Under the pieces are notes generated by a model. The model saw only the letters and a list, made by a program, of their open reading frames with translations. It made no database searches and was not told where the DNA came from. From the NCBI GenBank assembly GCA_024679065.1, contig JAGIQG010000037.1, positions 14,942,001 to 15,006,000 on the forward strand: a stretch of DNA of 64,000 bases, in the 5' to 3' direction. Of this stretch, positions 7,112 through 46,737 are shown piece by piece. Within the stretch, counting starts at the first letter, position 1; each line of letters starts with the position of its first letter. The stretch comes from Sphyrna mokarran (Eukaryota). The position numbers were made by a program, and so were the translations under genes.

Positions 7112-7635
7112 NNNNNNNNNNNNNNNNNNNNNNNNNNNNNNNNNNNNNNNNNNNNNNNNNNNNNNNNNNNNNNNNNNNNNNNNNNNNNNNNNNNNNNNNN
7201 NNNNNNNNNNNNNNNNNNNNNNNNNNNNNNNNNNNNNNNNNNNNNNNNNNNNNNNNNNNNNNNNNNNNNNNNNNNNNNNNNNNNNNNNNNNNNNNNNNNN
7301 NNNNNNNNNNNNNNNNNNNNNNNNNNNNNNNNNNNNNNNNNNNNNNNNNNNNNNNNNNNNNNNNNNNNNNNNNNNNNNNNNNNNNNNNNNNNNNNNNNNN
7401 NNNNNNNNNNNNNNNNNNNNNNNNNNNNNNNNNNNNNNNNNNNNNNNNNNNNNNNNNNNNNNNNNNNNNNNNNNNNNNNNNNNNNNNNNNNNNNNNNNNN
7501 NNNNNNNNNNNNNNNNNNNNNNNNNNNNNNNNNNNNNNNNNNNNNNNNNNNNNNNNNNNNNNNNNNNNNNNNNNNNNNNNNNNNNNNNNNNNNNNNNNNN
7601 NNNNNNNNNNNNNNNNNNNNNNNNNNNNNNNNNNN
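7112..7635. other. Assembly gap (others: 11843-12003, 21186-21639, 53028-53416, 59561-59700, 60411-60562)
   Basis: Runs of N, all bordered by microsatellites. Confidence 1.
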
Positions 7636-11600: not shown

Positions 11601-14600
11601 ATTGCCAGTCATTGGGAGCCGCATTTGGAACACAGCAGCACAGGGGACTCACCTAATTGATAGGAGGCAGAGAGAGAGAGACAGCGAGAGAGAAACAGAG
11701 AGGGAGAGACAGCGAGAGAGAGACAGAGAGGGAGAGACAGCGAGAGAGAGAGAGACAGAGAGGGAGAGACAGCGAGGGAGAGGGAGACAGAGAGCGAGAG
11801 AGACAGCGAGAGGGAGAGACAGCGAGAGAGGGAGAGACAGCGNNNNNNNNNNNNNNNNNNNNNNNNNNNNNNNNNNNNNNNNNNNNNNNNNNNNNNNNNN
11901 NNNNNNNNNNNNNNNNNNNNNNNNNNNNNNNNNNNNNNNNNNNNNNNNNNNNNNNNNNNNNNNNNNNNNNNNNNNNNNNNNNNNNNNNNNNNNNNNNNNN
12001 NNNTGAGGGGATGGGGGGGAGAGACGCAGGGAGAGAGGGATAGAGTGGGGGCGGGGAGAGAGGCAGGGAGTGTGAGAGGGAGAGACAGTGAGAGAAAAAA
12101 GGTGAGGGGATGGGGGGGCGTGGGGAAAGGCAGAGAAAGGGAGAGAGAGAGATAGAGAGGGGGGAGAGGCTGAGAGAGAGAGAGATTGGGGGGGGAGAGG
12201 CAGGGAGTGAGTGAGAGGGAGAGAGAGTATTTAAAGTTTTAAACTTCATTTATTGGTCTAACAAGTAAGGCCTACATTAACAACTGAATGAAGTTACTGA
12301 GACAGATACAGAGAAAGAAATAGAGGGAGAGTTTAAAGATTATTTCTTACTGTTACATTAACACACAGAGAGAGGGAGTATCCAGAGTGGGTTCAGTAAC
12401 ACATTTACTCCTCAGCTCTCTCTCTCTGACTCTTTCAGAATGAGATATTTAGCCAGAATGGTTTCACTGACGTTGTTCCGCAGACAATCCAGCCTGGCTC
12501 TCAGACACACACACATTCCCTCTGCTCTGTCCAAGGCAATGTTTTAAACTCAGGAATTCAAGTTTAAGAGCAATCACAAACCCCCCGCTGCCTTTGAACC
12601 AACGGAATCAGCCCTTTTCCTTTACCATATGGGTTTAATCCAGACCTACAGACACAAATCTGTCTGTCAGCCTGCCTGGGAGAGTTGGGAGGGTGAATAT
12701 CAGATACAGAGGATGTAAGGACAGAGTGTGGGATGGAGATTTACAGCCTCTGGGGGCGACGAGAGGGCAAAGAATGTCCCAAAGAAACTCAAGGAATTTC
12801 TTCTGAATTTCTCCCCTGTAACTGACAGTGATGTCTGTTGTAAATTCCTGTTGTAAATTGGCTGTGCTAAATTGCCCCCTTGGAGTCCAAAGATGTGCAT
12901 GTTACGGGGATTGGCCCTGCTAAATTGTCCGTTAGTGTCCAAAGATGTGCAGGTTAGGTAGATTGGCCATGCTAAATTGCTCCTTAGTGTCCAAAGATGT
13001 GCAGGTTAGGGGGGATTGGCCATGCTAAATTGCTCCTTAGTGTCCAAAGATGTGCAGGTTAGGGTGGATTGGCCATGCTAAATTGTCCCTTAGTGTCCAA
13101 AGATGTGCAGGTTAGGGTGGATTGGCCATGCTAAATTGTCCTTAGTGTCCAAAGATGTGCAGGTTAGGGTGGATTGCCATGCTAAATTGTCCTTAGTGTC
13201 CAAAGATGTGCAGGTAGGTGGATTGGTTTCCATGCTAAATTGCCTCCTTAGTGTCCAAAGATGTGTAGGTTAGGTGGATTGGCCATGCTAAATTGCCCCT
13301 TAGTGTCCAAAGATAAGCAGGTTAGGTGGATTGGCCATGCTAAATTGCCCCTTAGTGTCCAAAGATGTGCATGTTACGGGGATTGGCCCTGCTAAATTGC
13401 CCCTTAGTGTCCAAAGATATGCAGGTTAGGTGGATTGGCCATGATAAATTGTCCGTTAGTGTCAGAGGGTTAGTAGGTTAAATAAGTGGTGCTATGAGTG
13501 TAGGACCTGGGTATAGTCAGAGTGGATTCGATGGGTCGAATGTCCTTATTCAACACTGTATGGATTGTATGACTGGGTGCAGGAAGAGGGTTTGGAAAGA
13601 GCACCTTGGGTCAGCATTGGCGGGATGGGCTAAATGGCCTCTTTCTATGCTGTATCATGGTTCGAAGTCTGGGTGAACATCTTTTGCTGATTTAGTAAAG
13701 ATTGGTAACTTCTTTGCAATCTGCCATGATTTTGACCTGTTTGACTGTTAGATAGAAACGTAACCTCCTGCCCTAGAGAGGGCATGAGCAATTACACTGC
13801 TCAATCCCTTTGATATCCCACCCGATCCAGTTCTCTATCTCTCAGGTTCCTTGCCTTTTGAAGTTATCCTTTTGTATAACTTTGGGGTCACCAAAAACTC
13901 AAATGGACTCGCTCCAAGAGCAGGTCAGAGGCTAGGAATATTGCGGCGAATAACTCATCCCCTGAGTCCCCCCCAAAGCCCGTCCATCACCTACAAGGAC
14001 ACAAGTTCAGGAGTGTGATGGAATACTCCCCGCTTGCCTGGATGGGTGCGTCTCCAACAACACTCGAGAAGCTCGACACGATCCCATTAGCACCCCATTC
14101 ACAAATGCTCACTCCCCGTCCTGAGGGAGGACCAGGACAGGTTGTTGGTGATCTGGACACCTAAAAAACTTGAAGCTCTTGACCCTTTCTACTTTGCTGA
14201 CGCAGACTTTGTAGATGTTCTGCTCTACGCTTGCTGAAGTTGATGAGAATCTCCTTCATTTTGTTGACATAGAGGGAGAGATTATTGTCACCGCACCAGT
14301 CCACCAGATTCTCTACCTCATTCCTGTAGATTGCGGGCACGTTACTTGTGACTAAAACTGAGGTCTTAACACTTTCTGAACACGTAAATGATGAATTAAC
14401 TTTCGCTACACACCAGGTGGGATAATTCATGGTGTTTCTACGAAGCTTGCGTGACCCATAATATTCTATGATTGAATTTGGTTAGGATGGGGAAGAGAGG
14501 TTTCACTCCAAGTCTGATCCGTTTTATCAACAACAAAGTTTAATTAAGCATATTGTTGATATGTACAGTAAGACACTTAGCAAGAACTTTTAACAGTTAG

Positions 14601-15029: not shown

Positions 15030-15310
15030 ACCTAAGAGAGGCGTGGACAAAGTGGATAGTCAGAAGCTTTTTCCCCCCAGAGTGGAAGGTGCGAGGGGCA
15101 AAGTTTAAAGGAGAAGTACAGAGGGTGGTGGGTGCCTGGTGGGGGAAGTAGTGAAAGCAGATACGGTAGTGACTTTTAAGGGGAGTTTGGACAAACATAT
15201 GAATAGGATGGGAATAGAGGGTCGCCGGAAGGGTAGAGGGTTTTAGTTCAGTGGGTCGGTGCGTGCTTGGAGGGGGCCGGAGGGCCTGTTCTTGTGCTGT
15301 AATTTCCTTT
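15030..15310 (+). mobile_element. CR1 3' end fragment
   Basis: Degenerate CR1 ORF2 end (cttttccccagagtgg..tttaagg..ttggacaaacatatgaat) and the agggcctgttcttgtgctgt tail. Confidence 0.65.
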
Positions 15311-15856
15311 ATTGTTTGAAAGCGTGATTTTTTTTAAATAAAAAAGAGCTTAAAGGTACACATACATCATGCCAACAATGGAAATTTAAAATACTCAAAA
15401 ACTATCTCTATTCCGTTGAAAAAAATGGGATACTCCCCCCTCCCCTGTGGAGCTTACTCTGGTAGTGGAGAGGCTAGTGGGATCCCACCAAAGCCGATGT
15501 TTCTTTTCGACATCTCGTCCGCCGGAAGAAACAGAAACTCCCGCCTCGGTGTCTAAGCACCTGCTGCGCATGAATTAAACAAAAACAGAGTGCAGGGGTA
15601 ACGTGTCACTAGCGACTAACATTCACGATTTAGTCAAAGTTGGGTTGCGATTGGTGTCTACCAAGCGAGATTTAACATAAGGTAACTTCTAAGCAATTTG
15701 CCGCGAGTGTACAACGTGGAAGAAAAGCGGGAGTGTGATCCAGAGAGGTGGAATTAGTTGTTCCGAGCTCGGAGCCTCCAGCGTTCACGGAGATCTTTCG
15801 ATGTGCTTTCCTCTGGGCGGGACCCGGAGTTGCTGGTCTTGGAATTAGAACATCGA

Positions 15857-15930
15857 TCATGTAGGAACCTTGGTCAGTAACAGGAACAGGATCACGGTGC
15901 AGAGCTTTCCTCCACAGAGTTGAGATGGCC
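15857..15930 (-). CDS. Gene A terminal coding exon, GPI-signal-like hydrophobic tail
   Basis: Long polypyrimidine acceptor (ctctcttcttccgcacccttag). The phase-1 frame gives GPSQLCGGKLCTVILFLLLTKVPT* with TGA at 15859-15857. Confidence 0.75.
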
Positions 15931-15989
15931 CTAAGGGTGCGGAAGAAGAGAGGGAGGGGCGTAAGAACACTGGGTCGCATTTTGATCAT

Positions 15990-16480
15990 CAGATGCAATA
16001 TCCTGATCCCCCTTCGCCCCCCCCAAATCCTTCGATCCCTTATCCCCAAGAGCGATATCCAATTCCTTTTTTAAAATCACACAACGGTTTGGACTCAACT
16101 ATCTTCGGTGGGAGTGAAGTCCACCGCCCTCTGAGTGAAGAAATTTCTCTCCTCTATCCTTTATCCTCAAACTATGATCCCCTCCCCGGAGTTCTGGACT
16201 CCCTCCCCCCACCCCCCACCATCAGGGAACATTCTTTCTGAATCTACCCTGTCTAACCCTGTTAGAATTTTATAAGTTTCTATGCGATCCCCTCACTTGT
16301 CTAAACTCCAGTGAATATAATCCTAACCGACTTAATGTCTCCTCGAACGACAGACCCAAGATTCAGCCCGGTAGACCTTTGCTGTACTTCCTCTATACCC
16401 TTCCTCAGACACGGAGACCAAAACTGCACACAATACTCCAGGTGTGGCCTCACCGACACCCTGTATAATTGCAGTAAAAT
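15990..16480 (-). mobile_element. CR1 LINE fragment
   Basis: The - strand encodes LYRVSVRPHLEYCVQFWSP. Related fragments lie at about 1885-2225 and 36555-36880. Confidence 0.8.
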
Positions 16481-16634
16481 ATTAGTGGGCCTCTTCCCAT
16501 TCTGTGTACTCTCTGGTGGGAATGGGGATGGGCCAAAGGGCCTGTTTTCTGCGTTGTACATCTCCAAGACTGGATGGTGGGAATGGGGGATCCTCCAGAA
16601 CTGTAAGAGTGTCGAGGTCTTGGTGAGTTGTGGA

Positions 16635-17200
16635 GCAACGTGGTGGCACAGTGGGTTAGCACTGCTGCCTCACAGGGTCAGGGACGCGGGTTCGATTCCC
16701 GGCTCGGGTCACCATCTGTGTGGAGTCTGCACATTCTCCTCGTGTTTGCGTGGGTTTCCTCCGGGTGCTCCGGTTTCCTCCCACAGTCCAAAGATGTGCA
16801 GGTTAGGTGGATTGGCCATGCTAAATTGTCCCTTAGTATCCAAAGATGTGCAGATTAGGTGGATTGGCCATGCTAAATTGTCCCTTAGTATCCAAAGATG
16901 TGCAGATTAGGTGGATTGGCCATGCTAAATTGTCCCTTAGTATCCAAAGATGTGCAGATTAGGTGGATTGGCCATGCTAAATTGTCCCTTAGTGTCCAAA
17001 GATGTGCAGGTTAGGTGGATTGGCCGTGCTAAATTGCCCCTCAGTGTCCAAAGATTTGCAGGTTAGGGGGATTGGCCATGCTAAATTGCCCCTTAGTGTC
17101 AGGGGAACAGCTAGGACAGATACATGGGGTTATGGGGATAGGGCGTGGGTGGGATTGTGATCGGTGCAGGCTCAATGGGCCGAATGGCCTCCTGTAGGGA
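16635..17200 (+). mobile_element. HE1/V-SINE with internal 52-bp tandem expansion (representative copy)
   Basis: tRNA-like head (tggcacagtgg..gggttcgattcc), V-domain (tgtggagtctgcacattctcc..gggtgctccggtttcctcccacag) and CR1-like tail (gggccgaatggcctcc). Other copies at about 360-640, 780-1030, 18092-18265, 22985-23135, 35670-35920, 37030-37340, 43850-44035, 49255-50400, 51830-52060, 52540-52900, 54590-55640, 57890-58150 and 62780-63900. Confidence 0.88.
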
Positions 17201-17627
17201 TTCTGTGTGGCAATACTAAATCAAATCTAACAATGCAATCAAATCGAAGGTAAGTGCCACAGTGGCCGCAGGGAACGTCCTGAGCTTATGGAAGGAGCTA
17301 TATAAATGAAAGTCTGGGCTGCAACTTATCACGGTGTCGCCTTAAGAGACAATGAGTAAGCGGCCAAGGTGTATACCGTGTGACCAGCAGCCTTCGTTGA
17401 GGGAGGGCGGAGGGGGGGGTCTCCCAGTTTTGGAAGTGTGGAGGAATTCCCACCTTCCTGTTGTTAACAATAGCTGTCAAATCTTTGTAGTCAAACCTGC
17501 CCGCTGGGACGTCCTGCGACCAATCATCGCATGACCCCTCCCCCCCCCACAAATCCGGGCCCCGTGCATGCATAGGGAGTGTTGGGAGGAGGGGAATGAG
17601 TCCAGAGAGAAAAAAATGTTTTCCTAC

Positions 17628-17987
17628 CCGAATTCACCAACAGTTCCACGTGCGCACATTTTGTAGCGCGGCCTCCATCTCTCAGGAAGCAGGTGTAGTT
17701 TCCGGAATCTTGCGTCTGCAGCTGGGTGATCTTCAGGGTGGCATTCCTGCTTTGAGTCCAGGAGGGAGGGAGAGACGTGCGCTTTGTAAATCTCTGATCC
17801 TGGGATTCCGACCGCGTCCCATTCTGATATTCTCCCAGTACAACTACAGTCTTGCTTCCAAGATCCAGTTGCCAGGAGACTAACAGATCCTTTGACGAAT
17901 TCACTTCCCGAAAGTAACAGGGCAGTAACGCTATACCCTTCTTTGACACATTCATCACTCGGTTCTCTGCCTGACACTTGATAGCGT
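17628..17987 (-). CDS. Gene A IgV-set exon, B7-family-like (CD86/ICOSL/B7-H3 type)
   Basis: 360-nt phase 1-1 exon (tcttacag acceptor, G|GTAGGA donor). Contains LLPCYF, LLVSWQ, QDQRFTKRTSL, NATLKITQLQTQDSGNYTC, i.e. canonical B-strand Cys, C-strand Trp and DxGxYxC. Five N-glycosylation sequons. Confidence 0.9.
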
Positions 17988-18264
17988 CTGTAAGAAAGAC
18001 GACAAAGTTACAACACGTTCTGAAAAAACTCAGCCACACCCTGTACCTATCTAGCTCAACACCTCCATCTGTCATTCCCTGAACTTTACTAGCATGGTGG
18101 CACAGTGGGTTAGCACTGCTGCCTCACGGCGCCAGGGTCCTGGGTTCGATTCCCGGATTGGGACACTGTCTGTGTGGAATCTGCATGTTCTCCCCGTGTC
18201 TGCGTGGGTTTCCTCCAGTTGCTCCGGTTTCCTCCCACAGTCCGAAAGACACGCTGGTTGGGTG

Positions 18265-20170
18265 TTCCCTTTACACTGTCCCCCCCATCAAACACTCCCA
18301 GGACAGGTACAGCATGGGGTTAGATACAGAGTAAAGCTCCCTTTACACTGTCCCTCCATCAAACACTCCCAGGACAGGTACAGCATGGGGTGAGATACAG
18401 AGTAAAGCTCCCTCTACACTGTCCCCCCATCAAACACTCCCAGGACAGGTACAGCACGGGGTTAGATACAGAGTAAAGCTCCCTCTACACTGTCCCCCCA
18501 TCAAACACTCCCAGGACAGGTACAGCACGGGGTTAGATACAGAGTAAAGCTCCCTCTACACTGTCCCCCCATCAAACACTCCCAGGACAGGTACAGCACG
18601 GGGTTAGATACAGAGTAAAGCTCCCTCTACACTGTCCCCATCAAACACTCCCAGGACAGGTACAGCACGGGGTTAGATACAGAGTAAAGCTCCCTCTACA
18701 CTGTTCCCCCATCAAACACTCCCAGGACAGGTACAGCACGGGGTTAGATACAGAGTAAAGCTCCCTCTACACTGTCCCCATCAAACACTCCCAGGACAGG
18801 TACAGCACGGGGTTAGATACAGAGTAAAGCTCCCTCTACACTGTCCCCCCATCAAACACTCCCAGGACAGGTACAGCACGGGGTTAGATACAGAGTAAAG
18901 CTCCCTCTACACTGTCCCCCATCAAACACTCCCAGGACAGGTACAGCACGGGGTTAGATACAGAGTAAAGCTCCCTCTACACTGTCCCCCATCAAACACT
19001 CCCAGGACAGATACAGCACGGAGTTAGATACAGAGTAAAGCTCCCTCTACACTGTCCCCCATCAAACACTCCCAGGACAGGTACAGCACGGGGTTAGATA
19101 CAGAGTAAAGCTCCCTCTACACTGTTCCCCCATCAAACACTCCCAGGACAGGTACAGCACGGGGTTAGATACAGAGTAAAGCTCCCTCTACACTGTCCAT
19201 CAAACACTCCCAGGACAGGTACAGCATGGGGTTAGATACAGAGTAAAGCTCCCTCTACACTGTCCCCCCATCAAACACTCCCAGGACAGGTACAGCACGG
19301 GGTTAGATACAGAGTAAAGCTCCCTCTACGCTGTCCCCGTCAAAACTTGGAGGACAGATACAGCACGAGTTAGATACAGAGTAAAGCTCCCTCTACACTG
19401 TCCCCCAATCAAACACTCCCAGGACAGGTACAGCACGGGGTTAGATACAGAGTAAAGCTCCATCTACACTGTTCCCCCATCAAACACTCACAGGACAGGT
19501 ACAGCACGGGGTTAGATACAGAGTAAAGCTCCCTCTACACTGTCCCCCCATCAAACACTCACAGGACAGCGACTGCACGGGGTTAGATACAGAGTAAAGT
19601 TCCCTCTACACTGTTCCCCCATCAAACACTCCCAGGACAGGTACAGCACGGGGTTAGATACAGAGTAAAGCTCCATCTACACTGTTCCCCCATCAAACAC
19701 TCACAGGACAGCGACTGCACGGGGTTAGATACAGAGTAAAGCTCCCTCTACGCTGTCCCCCCATCAAACACTCCCAGGACAGGTACAGCACGGGGTTAGA
19801 TACAGAGTAAAGCTCCATCTACACTGTTCCCCCATCAAACACTCCCAGGACAGCGACTGCACGGGGTTAGATACAGAGTAAAGCTCCCTCTACGCTGTCC
19901 CCCCATCAAACACTCCCAGGACAGGTACAGCACGGGGTTAGATACAGAGTAAAGCTCCCTCTACACTGTCCCCCCATCAAACACTCCCAGGACAGGTACA
20001 GCACGGGGTTAGATACAGAGTAAAGCCCCCTCTACACTGTCCCCATCAAACACTCCCAGGACAGGTACAGCACGGGGTTAGATACAGAGTAAAGCTCCCT
20101 CTACGCTGTCCCCCCATCAAACACTCCCAGGACAGCGACTGCACGGGGTTAGATACAGAGTAAAGCTCTC
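18265..20170. repeat. About 70-bp minisatellite in the gene A leader-V intron
   Basis: Unit ctccctctacactgtcccccatcaaacactcccaggacaggtacagcacggggttagatacagagtaaag. Confidence 0.95.
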
Positions 20171-20294
20171 TCTATAGTTTAATGGTGAACGAGCGAGGGA
20201 GACGCTTGCTCTGAGTCCAGGGCGATATTTGGGGGGGGGGGGGAGGTGCGGGTGTGCAGTGGGTTGGAGGAGGGGGAGAGATATGTCTTCTTAC

Positions 20295-20358
20295 CTGTCT
20301 GTGAGATTCCAGTGAGTAGGAGCAGAGAGAGGATCAGCCCGGGATCTGTGACCACCAT
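20295..20358 (-). CDS. Gene A leader (signal peptide) exon
   Basis: ATG at 20358. Encodes MVVTDPGLILSLLLLTGISQT plus 1 nt, with an ACAG|GTAAGA phase-1 donor. An upstream acceptor (ttttgtctccag, exon start about 20381) implies a 5' UTR exon further upstream. Confidence 0.85.
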
Positions 20359-33486: not shown

Positions 33487-33698
33487 TTAAGGTGTCTTCT
33501 CGCTGGGCGTGGCTGTCTCCTTCAGAGAGGGAGAGTTGAACGATTTTCTCCTGGACCTCCCCCAGCATCTTTCCAAATATCGGCTCCTTCCGAAGGAGTA
33601 AAGCAGACCCACGATGAGAGCCAGGCCCACAATGCAGAGGAGCGAGACTAGACATCGGAGTTCCATCGATTGTCTCTCCCTCAGGGGATCACTGTTCA
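33487..33698 (-). CDS. Gene B transmembrane and cytoplasmic terminal exon
   Basis: (ct)n-cccctacag acceptor, phase 1. Encodes VNSDPLRERQSMELR-CLVSLLCIVGLALIVGLLYSFG-RSRYLERCWGRSRRKSFNSPSLKETATPSEKTP*: a 22-residue hydrophobic helix followed by basic stop-transfer residues. Confidence 0.8.
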
Positions 33699-35491: not shown

Positions 35492-38400
35492 CTGGGGAAA
35501 TGAGAAGAGAGAGCTTTGTCTTTACATAATGTCCTTCCCCACGCCCCACCCAGGAACACTGAAACAGAAAAACTCGGAGCAGGAGAAGGCCCTTCAGCCC
35601 TTCGAATCCGTTCCGTCAATCACAGCTGATCACCAAATTCAATATCCTGCCTCGGCAAAGCTAGGATCATTTTTATTTATTTGTCCCAAGTTGGTTTACA
35701 TTAACACTGCAATGAAGTTGCTGTGAAAATCGGGTAACACTGAGGGAGAACTTAGCGCGGCCAACGCACCCTAACCAGCGCGTGGGAGGGAACCAGAGCA
35801 GCCGGAGGAAACCCATGCAGGCACGGGGAGAATGTGCAGACTCCACACAGACCCAAGCCAGGTATCGAACCCGGGTCCCTGGCGCTGCGAGGCAGCAGTG
35901 CTAACCACTGTGCCATCCTGCCCACTCTATAATCCAGGATCCCTCGCACCCCGGACATTCTCTCTTCCACCTTCCTCCATCAGGAAATAGATATAAAAGT
36001 TTGAGGTCACGCACCGACCGACTCAAGAACAGCTTCTTCCCTGCTGCTGTCAGACTTTTGAACGGACATACCTCGCATTAAGTTGATCTTTCTCTCCACC
36101 CTAGCTGTGACCGTAACACTACATTCTGCACTCTCTCCTTTCCTTCTCTATGTACGGTATGCTTTGAATGTATAGCACACAAGAAACAATACTTTTCACT
36201 ATATCCCAATACATGTGACAATAATAAATCAAATCCTCCTCCCCAAAGATTCTATGAACAGTATGCTTTGTCTGTATAGCGCTCAAGGAACAATACTTTA
36301 CATCGTATCCCAATACATCTGACAATAATAAATCAAATCCTTCTCCTTGTATACTCTATGAACAGTATACTTTGTCTGTATAGCTCACAAGAAACAATAC
36401 TTTTCACTGACTCCCAATATATGTGACAATAATAAATCAAATCCTTCTCCCCATATACCCTATAAACAGTATGCTTTGTGTGTATAGCGCGGAAGAAACA
36501 ATACTTTTTACTCTATCCCAACACACGTGACAATAATAAATCAAATCAAAACATTGAGAACATTCTTTCTGAATCTACCCTGTCTAACTCTGTTAGAATT
36601 TTATAAGTTTCTATCAGATCCCCTCTCACTCTTCCAAACTCCAGCGAATATAATCCTCACCGATTTAGTCTATCCTCATATGACAGAGCTGCCATCCAGG
36701 AATCTGCCTGGTAAATCTTCGCTGTGCTCCCTCTGTAGCGAGAACACCCCCTTCCTTCGATACGGAGACCAAAACTTCACACAATACTCCAGGTGTTGTA
36801 CAATCGCAGCAAAACATCCCTATTCCTGTACTCAAATCTTCTCGCTGTCAACATACCATTTGCCTTCTCTACTTCCAAGGAATCCACTGTGAGACGTTGT
36901 AGGGTGGCAGTAACACAAAAGGGGTGGAATCCCGGAATGTGAGCACTCACCGGATAGATCCGGAATGACATTGTCCTCAGTTCTCTCGCGACGTGTCTTG
37001 TCACCTAAGGGAAAGAGGTGGAAGAGTGATTACAACTGCTGCCTCACCTCGCCAGTGACCCGGGTTCGAATCCCTGGTTTGGGTCACTCTCTGTGTGGAG
37101 TCTGCACATTCTCCCCGTGTCTGCGTGGGTTTCCTCTGGCTGCTGCGGTTTCCTCCCACATGCCAAAGACGTGCGGGTTTGGTTGACTGGCTAAATTGCC
37201 CCTCAGGGTCAGGAGGACTAGGAGGGTAAATACATTGTAAGGATGGGGGGGAGGGGGGGGAGGGGGAGGGCACAAGGATGGGCTAATGGACGGGACAGGT
37301 GCGATGGGCCGAATGGCCTCCTTCTGCACTGTAGGGAGTCTACCATTCAAATAATTGGCTTTTGCATCGAGCTCCTCCAGAACTTCGCAACGGGATTGAT
37401 TCCCCAAAGCTTCGCAACAGAAGCACAGCAAGATCCCAGACTGGGAGTGATGATGAAGCAGAGTGCTTACTTTGGGGCTTGAGCGAGGAATGTTGACCAG
37501 GGAACTGTCCCGGGGTTGCGTCATGGGACATTTGACTCGGGACCTAAATGGTGGGACACAGAATTCCGCGAAGGTCATATCTTGGAGGGCCACGACAGTG
37601 ACAGTGAGCGTTCCTTCAGCGCAGGAGCGTCAGCCGGGGAATTCCTCCCAATTCCTGGAGTGGGGATTAAACCCACAACTCTCCAACTCAGATGACACAT
37701 GAGTAACATGGAGACACACCTTTACCACTGCACTGTTTCACAGCTACTTTCGTATATATTGTTTAAATCTATCAATCTCAGAGCTCAAATTAACAATGAA
37801 TCCAGCATCGGTTCCCCTGAAGACCAAAGTCTAAAGATGTTCAGGTTAGGGTGGATTGGCCATGCTAAATTGCCCCTTAGCGTCCAAAGATATGCAGGAT
37901 AGCTGGATTGGCCATGCTAAATTGCCCCTTCGTGTCCAAAGATGCACAGTTTAGGTGGATGGCTATGCTAAATTGTTCCTTAATGTCCTTAGATGTGCAG
38001 GTTACATGGATTGGCCATGCTAAATTGCCCCTTAGTGTCCAAAGATTAGGCTAGGTGGATTGGCCATGCTAAATTGTTCCTTAATGTCCCTAGATGTGCA
38101 GGTTACATGGATTGGCCATGCTAAATTGCCCCTTAGTGTCCAAAGATGTGCAGGTTAGGTGGTTTGGCCATGCTAAATAGACCCTAATGTCCAAAGCTGT
38201 GTAGGTTAGGTGGATTGGCCATACTAAATTGCCCCTTAGCGTCCAAAGATATGCAGGTTAGCTGGGTTGGCCATGTTAAATTGCCCCTTAGTGTCCAAAG
38301 ATATGCAGGTTAGGTGGATTGGCCATGCTAAATTGCCCCTTAGTGTCCAAATATGTACAGGTTAGGTGGATTGGCCATGCTAAATAGACCCTTAGCATCC

Positions 38401-40860: not shown

Positions 40861-41099
40861 ACTTGTCACCTTTTGTGTTAATTATTTAATCAGAGCAGGC
40901 GAAAGGTGGACCATGGAAATTAATCTCAGTTGGAGTTTTGTGATTCTGGATAAAGCAAGGCTGTAAAACCACGTCCAGAGAATCTGGAGAACTGGTACAA
41001 TAACAATGAGCTCTCTTGTTCAAGGTCAGTAAAATGGAAGAGATTGTTATCAACCTCAGGAAACGCAGAGGAGAACCTGCCCCTGTTTATGTCAAAGGG

Positions 41100-42205
41100 C
41101 TCAGATGAGGAGGATCGTGACAGACACCTCCAGACGCTGAAGGATGCCCTCGTGAGAACAGGATATGGCGCTCGACTCATCGATCCACAGTTCCGACGTG
41201 CCACAACGATGAACCGCACTGACCTCCTCAGAAGACGAACACGGGACACGGTGGACAGAGTACCCTTTGTTGTCCAGTACTTCCCCGGAGCGGAGAAGCT
41301 ACGACATCTTCTCTGGAGTCTTCAACATATCATTGATGACGATGAACATCTCGCTAGGGCCATCCCCACCCCCCCACTTCTTGCTTTCAGACAACCGCAC
41401 AACCTCAAACAGATCATTGTTCGCAGCAAACTACCCAACCTTCAGGAGAACAGTGACCACAATACCACACAACCCTGCCACAGCAACCTCTGCAAGACAT
41501 GCCGGATCATAGACATAGACGACATCATCAAACGTGAGGATACCATTCACCAGGTACACGGTACATACACTTGCAACTCGGCCAACGTTGTCTACCTAAT
41601 ACGTTGCAAGAAGGGATGTCCCGAAGCATGGTATATTGGGGAGACCATGCAGACACTACGACAGCAGATGAATGAGCATCGCTCAGCAATCACCAGGCAA
41701 AACAGTTCCCTTCCTGTGGGCGAACACTTCAGCAGTCATGGGCATTCGGCCTCCGACCTGCGGGTAAATGTTCTTCAAGGGGGCTTTCGTGATACACGAC
41801 AGCGCAGAGTCGCTGAACAGAGACTGATAGCCAAGCTCCGCACACATGAGGACAGTCTTAACAGGGATCTTGGCTTCATGACACACTATCTGTAACCCCC
41901 GTAACTTGCCTGGGTTAGCAAAAAAACCTCACTTACTGTGCTGTCTGGAGAAAATACACAATTCTCCAACAATGCTCAGGATTCCCTTCACACACATTGT
42001 TCGCCACTTTAACACTTGAATAGCAGGTTAGATGTAAGGATTCGCATTCTAATCAGCAATCCCTGACTGTCTGTGCTGATGTGTGCTATTGCAGACCAGA
42101 ACACTGAATTTGCCTGAGGAAGACACAGAGTCGAAAGCTCGCTTTTTTACTATCAAATAAATCGGTTGGATTATAAATTGGTGTTGCTAAATTCTTACTG
42201 AGTTC
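41100..42205 (+). mobile_element. 5'-truncated Penelope-like retroelement with GIY-YIG endonuclease and 3' pLTR
   Basis: ORF 41044-41895 contains TCNSANVVYLIRC..AWYIGETMQTLRQQMNEHRS..VGEHFS..RRVAEQRLIAKL..LNRD. Flanked by the 12-bp direct repeat TATGTCAAAGGG (41088-41099 and 42206-42217). Confidence 0.92.
42114..42140 (+). ncRNA. Minimal hammerhead ribozyme core in the Penelope pLTR
   Basis: CTGAGGA-A-GAC(acaga)GTC-GAAA-GCTC: conserved CUGANGA and GAAA boxes with a 3-bp stem II, at the position where Penelope-like elements are known to carry minimal hammerheads. Confidence 0.6.
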
Positions 42206-46377: not shown

Positions 46378-46737
46378 CTCGTACCTGGAGAACAGATCCA
46401 TTCCCATTGAATGTCTGGACTGGGAGGGGTTTGATAATCGTGACCCGACACCTGTAGGTGCCGGTGTGGTTTGCCGTTGCCTGGGAGATGGTTAGAGTTG
46501 AGGATGTGTTCTGTAGATGGGCTGAGATAGAGAGTGTGGGCTCAGAGTGATGACACTGGAATGATTCACTCTTGTACAAAGCGCAGTTGATCTCGGTCTT
46601 CCCGAAGATCCAGCTGAAGGTGATCTCTCTCAGCTTAGCGTCCGTTGACCACAAAGTGCACGTCAGGCCGACTGCCTCTCCTTCCGTCACGCTGAGAGAG
46701 CCGGGGAGCTGGGACACATTCCCCAGCCGGCTGTGTG
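46378..46737 (-). CDS. Gene B IgV (VJ-type) domain 2, CTLA4/CD28-like
   Basis: 360-nt phase 1-1 exon (ttgtgtccag acceptor, G|GTAGGT donor). Contains VSQLPGSL, GLTC, FSW, TEINCALY..FQC (an extra Cys pair) and TGTYRCRVTIIKPLPVQTFNGNGSVLQV. Confidence 0.9.

Follow-up and report, generated by a model that had tools for sequence, protein, structure and literature searches.

Diversification of the CD28 and B7 families is usually placed in early jawed vertebrates. As a rule, a B7 ligand is a membrane protein of V+C type whose gene lies on a different chromosome from that of its receptor. Can a B7-like ligand consist of a single V domain on a lipid anchor, and could its receptor be encoded next to it? 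These questions are raised by a gene, called here gene A, in a 64,000-nucleotide window of the shark Sphyrna mokarran (positions 14,942,001-15,006,000 of contig JAGIQG010000037.1, here C960; 19.1 Mb of a 2.77-Gb genome), and by a CTLA4-like receptor gene, gene B, which ends ~13 kb upstream of it in the same orientation. Judged from sequence, gene A is a real, conserved and apparently unnamed B7-like lineage. We consider it reasonably probable that its product, a predicted glycosylphosphatidylinositol (GPI)-anchored glycoprotein with a single immunoglobulin V domain (IgV), serves at the cell surface as a B7-like ligand of a CD28/CTLA4-type receptor, without signalling itself. The conserved gene A family, its two paralogues and the adjacent CTLA4-like genes are new beyond the initial annotation of the window.

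Results

Exon structure of gene A

Gene A is encoded on the minus strand by three coding exons with canonical splice sites, whose joined frame is open over 498 nt and yields a product of 165 amino acids (aa); both introns are in phase 1 (Table 1). The 165-aa product proposed in the initial annotation was thereby confirmed, as the three exons join in frame and models from nine other species have the same layout. The nearest protein is a RefSeq model of Mustelus asterias named CD276 antigen-like, also of 165 aa, with 17/21, 75/120 and 17/24 identities across the three exon products (63% for the V domain, the last value being that of the tail). Since this model matches gene A in length and in all three exon products, the agreement is more than chance, and the exon model read from the sequence is almost certainly correct. 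Among the four candidate acceptors listed in the 17.6 kb downstream, that at 15931 opens the most hydrophobic phase-1 reading (3.23 vs. 2.34 for the next). An AG acceptor was seen 23 nt 5′ of the ATG (exon start ~20381), which suggests a further 5′ untranslated exon. The 23 nt before the ATG (20381-20359, minus strand) carry an open in-frame reading and, as the models of Stegostoma and Callorhinchus have longer N-termini, an upstream start is possible as well.

Exon 2 matched the V-set family of Pfam (E 6e-10), and no Ig pattern was seen in intron 1 or intron 2. For a downstream C domain (IgC) we scanned sense-strand, stop-to-stop frames of at least 70 aa with at least two Cys in the stretch that begins with intron 2 and runs 50 kb beyond position 1 of the window (~67 kb downstream), a scan that excludes low-complexity frames and two unreadable N stretches (7112-7635 and 11843-12003). 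None of the 92 frames matched an Ig family in Pfam. The earlier description of intron 2 as gap-free and lacking an IgC exon therefore holds, and the V-then-IgC layout of B7 proteins was found neither in these frames nor in the orthologue models, all of which are single-V.

Table 1. Coordinates of gene A and gene B features, numbered from the first nucleotide of the window
Feature	Position	Strand	Remarks
Gene A coding exon 1, predicted signal peptide	20295..20358	-	64 nt, 21 codons + 1 nt, GT donor; 17/21 identities with the Mustelus model
Gene A intron 1	17988..20294	-	Largely a ~70-bp tandem repeat plus a SINE-like piece (short interspersed element)
Gene A exon 2, IgV domain	17628..17987	-	360 nt, AG/GT; Pfam V-set match
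Gene A intron 2	15931..17627	-	1697 nt, no N; SINE- and LINE-like pieces (short and long interspersed elements)
Gene A terminal coding exon	15857..15930	-	74 nt, TGA at end; encodes a spacer, 11 apolar residues in a row and the final four; predicted GPI signal
Gene A candidate polyadenylation signal	15308..15313	-	First AATAAA 3′ of the stop; would give a 3′ untranslated region of ~545 nt
Gene B V exon 1 (V1)	48719..49075	-	VJ-type V, YxC-x6-PLP-x5-GxG, CTLA4/CD28-like; candidate receptor
Second VJ-type V exon (V2)	46378..46737	-	Frame intact; shares the PLP and GxG motif with V1
Gene B stalk-repeat exons	near 36970 and 35490	-	Read from sequence
Gene B exon for the membrane segment and a short cytoplasmic part	33487..33698	-	Read from sequence

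Features of the V domain and the C-terminal tail

The gene A product has four Cys in the V domain (26, 45, 121 and 132) and two in the tail (147 and 152), and five N-glycosylation sequons in the V domain (34, 51, 77, 103 and 118). Cys45 of strand B and Cys121 of strand F form the canonical pair; Cys26 lies 19 residues before the former and Cys132 lies 11 residues after the latter. These two are the extra A- and G-strand cysteines (in IKCQ and TKCA) pointed out in the initial annotation, and all four V-domain Cys are invariant in 10/10 aligned rows of the family. An AlphaFold model of the V domain, with a mean predicted local distance difference test score of 91.7, places Cys26 in the first strand and Cys132 in the last. 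Given this co-conservation and the geometry of V domains, the model makes a second, Cys26-Cys132 disulfide very likely. Among 387 non-family V domains in the matches, 13 had Cys in both extra-pair windows, none of them at the exact -19/+11 spacing. As A-G pairs at other spacings recur elsewhere, the extra pair is a mark of the family and no unique invention.

A GPI signal combines small residues at the omega, omega+1 and omega+2 positions with a spacer of ~10 residues and a hydrophobic end, and has no cytoplasmic tail. When judged by hand with this rule, the features of such a signal were present in gene A and conserved in nine orthologues. The 26-aa tail of gene A has no cytoplasmic part: N140-S141-G142 follow the last valine of strand G, and the tail continues with a spacer of 10 residues, an apolar run of 11 and a closing four. 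There is thus no type I membrane helix with a cytoplasmic tail, the stop standing four residues after the apolar run. N140, whose codon lies at the end of exon 2, is the best omega site because Pro143 makes S141 and G142 poor ones, and counted from it the apolar run starts at omega+11. Small residues follow strand G in every aligned row of the family.

The initial annotation had called the hydrophobic stretch too short for a transmembrane helix, and the comparison with gene B is in line with this. The unbroken apolar runs of the family tails span 11-15 residues, and their best 19-residue hydropathy was 1.08-1.78 vs. 2.06-2.72 for the membrane segments of four gene B orthologues (Callorhinchus tail read from the alignment). 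Because the tails fall below true membrane segments, a GPI signal fits better than a helix, and on sequence features GPI anchoring of gene A is likely. The single-V, GPI-type layout claimed at first was thus found again in 9/9 other species, its GPI anchor staying a prediction.

Conservation of gene A in cartilaginous fish

All close protein relatives come from cartilaginous fish. Full-length models were found in Mustelus, Scyliorhinus, Carcharodon, Heterodontus, Hemiscyllium, Stegostoma, Heptranchias, Mobula and Callorhinchus, and in all nine they comprise 162-181 aa with a single V domain, a hydrophobic end and no cytoplasmic tail. On these gene models the family spans sharks, a ray and a chimaera. 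Their automatic names conflict (CD276-like, nectin-2-like, MOG-like and PD-L1-like). A family-profile search returned 11 matches, five of which were family members at 200-232 bits, while the other six scored at most 57 bits. No bony-vertebrate orthologue was found among the 7,992 candidates scored by this search, which is no proof of absence.

None of the titles and abstract openings listed in the literature searched described the family, most subscription papers, including key papers on B7 evolution, being outside that search. PMC12227049 and PMC10751288 deal with MHC- and antigen-receptor-linked genes (MHC, major histocompatibility complex), and no B7 terms were seen in one supplement of PMC3964593.

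Placement of gene A among B7, butyrophilin and Thy-1 proteins

Profile searches with the gene A family ranked CD276 first (two domains summed), followed by BTN3A (61 bits), CAR (56 bits) and then VTCN1, MOG and PD-L1. A single-sequence search also put B7/BTN-type V domains at the top, with CAR close and the margins small. The top atlas clusters were VTCN1-, BTN- and HHLA2-like (0.94-0.95), and the Thy-1 cluster ranked ninth (0.92). The N-terminal IgV of gene A thus looks like one of B7/BTN type. Gene A resembles the V domains of B7, BTN and MOG proteins in sequence and feature matches and in the V-set fold, but differs from them by the missing IgC, the missing membrane helix or tail and the extra A-G Cys pair. 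MOG is single-V but transmembrane, and GPI-linked B7 forms have reportedly been proposed in teleosts. As gene A has neither the V+C layout nor the membrane tail, we do not count it among the B7 proteins despite its B7/BTN-like V domain. According to Quiniou et al. (2024, PMC11599192), B7 proteins are typically V+C and placed in MHC paralogons.

In a tree of 38 rows, the gene A family and two paralogues from the same contig grouped on a single branch (97/95), to which neither the other shark B7-like V exons nor the remaining matches belonged. The tree was built without human B7, Thy-1 and MPZ; the row own_C816, a single orthologue of gene B and 8 of 24 outgroup rows were dropped from it.

Thy-1 has ~160 aa, a signal peptide, a single V domain, a GPI signal right after strand G and a second disulfide. 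The Thy-1 layout seen in gene A by the initial annotation stands in respect of the single V plus GPI; the extra Cys, however, seem to lie elsewhere than in the Thy-1 pattern, and no CBL-family marker of the Thy-1 region is present on the contig. The sequence of gene A is B7/BTN-like, and its likeness to Thy-1 is one of layout only. Weak evidence against orthology with Thy-1, from a single marker, is that all six Cbl_N matches lie on contigs C335, C871 and C668 and none on C960. Further B7-like V exons, at C335:19,135,529 and C668:3,291,104, have CBL-family genes at distances of 0.6 Mb and 2.5 Mb, respectively, and are candidates for conventional B7 genes of this genome.

The human CD7 and SECTM1 genes adjoin, CD7 is built of a V domain and a repeat stalk, and FASN marks their region. 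FASN-like genes were found on contigs other than C960, and orthology with this pair was set aside, again on a weak test with one marker. SECTM1 is described in PMC11814170 as a ligand with one V domain, made in membrane and secreted forms, which binds CD7 and has a co-stimulatory effect on T cells. Likened by description, it is a single-V ligand as the gene A product may be, but is transmembrane and has no GPI anchor.

The adjacent gene B and the repeated gene order

Gene B has the single V domain with a CDR3 (complementarity-determining region 3) proline motif and the membrane helix of the CD28 family. The PLP and GxG motifs are invariant in 7/7 aligned rows, and the membrane segment is present in four orthologues. 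The top atlas cluster of the Heterodontus orthologue was CTLA4-like (0.97); against solved-structure sequences, the matches of the gene B orthologue were T-cell receptor alpha chains. Quiniou et al. (2024, PMC11599192) give shark CD28/CTLA4-related genes a single V with P-[P/L]-P in CDR3 and then GxG, and the spacing in gene B fits their CD28X consensus YxCx6PPPx4/5GxG. Gene B differs from that family by its repeat stalk and by having no conserved Tyr motif. Its locus identifier, its accession and its two CDR3 motifs were not found in nine supplements of the paper. The exon V2 lies within the span of gene B, no leader being found between V1 and V2, and groups in the tree with the receptor at 14.079 Mb, not with V1. 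A 1.24-kb, 97% identical inverted copy, frameshifted, lies 20 kb away (C960:15,008,232-15,009,463, plus strand).

The two paralogues of gene A on C960 have V exons at 15,148,231 and 14,100,251 with the extra Cys pair spaced -19/+13. Candidate hydrophobic stop exons lie at 15,149,438 (good acceptor) and 14,102,695 (weak acceptor), respectively, and no IgC was seen downstream in the 106 frames scanned. The row of the 14.10-Mb paralogue is long in the tree and its placement less sure. A membrane exon at C960:14,139,814 was rejected as part of this gene because an amine-oxidase exon intervenes; a piece resembling the last exon of a gene for a flavin amine oxidase lies beside the paralogue at C960:14,129,716-14,129,949 (plus strand).

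A VJ exon followed by a B7-like gene on the same strand occurs three times on C960: 14.079 to 14.100, 14.991 to 14.960 and 15.009/15.015 to 15.148 Mb. The third pair is weaker, as its V exons are frameshifted and lie 135 kb from the 15.148-Mb gene. In Heterodontus, the RefSeq accession of the gene A orthologue and that of the gene B orthologue directly follow one another. Both orthologues lie on equally long contigs in Heterodontus, Carcharodon, Heptranchias and Scyliorhinus, where adjacency is inferred and not mapped.

C960 carries a p53-family gene, an exon of which best matches p53 itself (TP53). TFR2, searched as a second 7q22/17p13 marker, gave matches on C2 only and was uninformative. 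MHC linkage of gene A was rejected on the MHC class I matches, all 53 of which lie on C1548, as does an NCR3-like V; paralogon markers such as NOTCH, RXR and PBX were outside this search. This NCR3/NKp30-like VJ exon is at C1548:96,873,251, ~1 Mb from the MHC class I matches. Likewise, correspondence to the NCR3/B7-H6 pair was rejected, as the V exons of the gene B region branch apart from the NCR3-like gene in the tree.

Four V exons at C960:15,158,976-15,192,200, which we take to be PILR/Siglec-like, form a near-identical 20-kb tandem duplication with an inverted fragment at 15,187,610; it could be a recent event or an assembly artefact. In the window, a 313-aa open frame without a Pfam match (40954-41892, plus strand) resembles the C-terminal end of a retroelement of the Penelope type.

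Discussion

According to the sequence and its orthologues, the gene A product consists of a signal peptide, one V domain and a short tail ending at the stop, with no C domain and no cytoplasmic part. The tail is predicted to be exchanged for GPI after cleavage at N140-S141-G142 or close by, leaving the V domain on its anchor without a stalk. The Cys26-Cys132 bond would tie strand A to strand G and may stiffen the anchor-proximal sheet. Having no tail of its own, the product would work through a receptor borne by another cell; GPI-cleaving enzymes could shed it. A role as an immune ligand is somewhat favoured. The most speculative step is that the adjacent gene B encodes the receptor. With its glycosylated repeats, the stalk of this receptor would supply the height that the ligand, lacking a C domain, does not provide between the two cells, which would parallel the CD7-SECTM1 pair. 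We regard gene B as a doubtful partner.

Several observations weigh against a GPI-anchored ligand of a CD28/CTLA4-type receptor. By profile, CAR is within 5 bits of BTN3A1, and a Foldseek search with the gene A model placed CAR D1 first and PD-L1 seventh, with CRIg and the sodium-channel beta-4 also among the top matches. The B7-like look noted initially thus holds for the nearest likeness (CD276, BTN3A, VTCN1, MOG and PD-L1), but since CAR is close by sequence and first by fold no clean B7 assignment results, and the closeness of CAR leaves an adhesion role open. The apolar run of gene A is short, and with S141 and G142 spoiled by Pro143 only N140 is left as an omega site. Tail-less RefSeq isoforms exist in Hemiscyllium (141 and 142 aa) and Callorhinchus (155 aa), so that some product may be secreted. 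B7-H4, too, was first suggested to be GPI-anchored and later reported to be transmembrane (PMC2760136). In gene B, the tails compared (P0156, P0159, P0160, P0161 and the window exon) share no conserved cytoplasmic Tyr motif, and linkage of the two genes alone is no demonstration of binding.

Gene A could instead encode a GPI-anchored adhesion or raft-organising molecule of Thy-1 or CAR/MOG type with no co-stimulatory receptor, the gene B neighbourhood reflecting shared history in a cluster rich in immunoglobulin-superfamily genes. We think this unlikely. It would suit the top folds, where CAR D1 and the sodium-channel beta-4 stand alongside PD-L1, the rank of the Thy-1 cluster and the PILR/Siglec-like V exons of the region, which make such neighbours common; yet the sequence profile puts B7/BTN first, and each of the three family members on the contig has VJ-type exons upstream of it on its own strand. 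It is improbable that most of the gene A product is secreted, as a single-V protein or a soluble decoy, through a weak GPI signal or dominant tail-less isoforms: such isoforms occur in 2/9 species, the short run and Pro143 are features of the S. mokarran gene, and a read-through frame is open from exon 2 into intron 2, but the hydrophobic terminal exon is retained in all nine other species, from sharks to chimaera. A minimal type I or tail-anchored protein whose hydrophobic end stays in the bilayer, as the B7-H4 reassignment and a basic or polar residue four from the end in most orthologues might suggest, is very improbable given the short apolar runs and the low hydropathy of the tails.

A predicted GPI-anchored, B7-like ligand thus stays our preferred reading of gene A. 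As a tentative extension, the TP53-bearing small chromosome may carry an ancient co-signalling system, in which a stalked CTLA4-like receptor and its own GPI-type single-V B7-like ligand were duplicated together as cassettes three times and were lost or became unrecognisable in bony vertebrates.

The gene A family represents a new layout, a single-V GPI-type B7-like protein in sharks, rays and chimaeras, which current annotation splits under four wrong names. If gene B is the receptor, the locus would offer a directly testable linked receptor-ligand pair for the origin of second-signal pairs; if it is not, gene A would still be a well-conserved shark leukocyte or adhesion marker.

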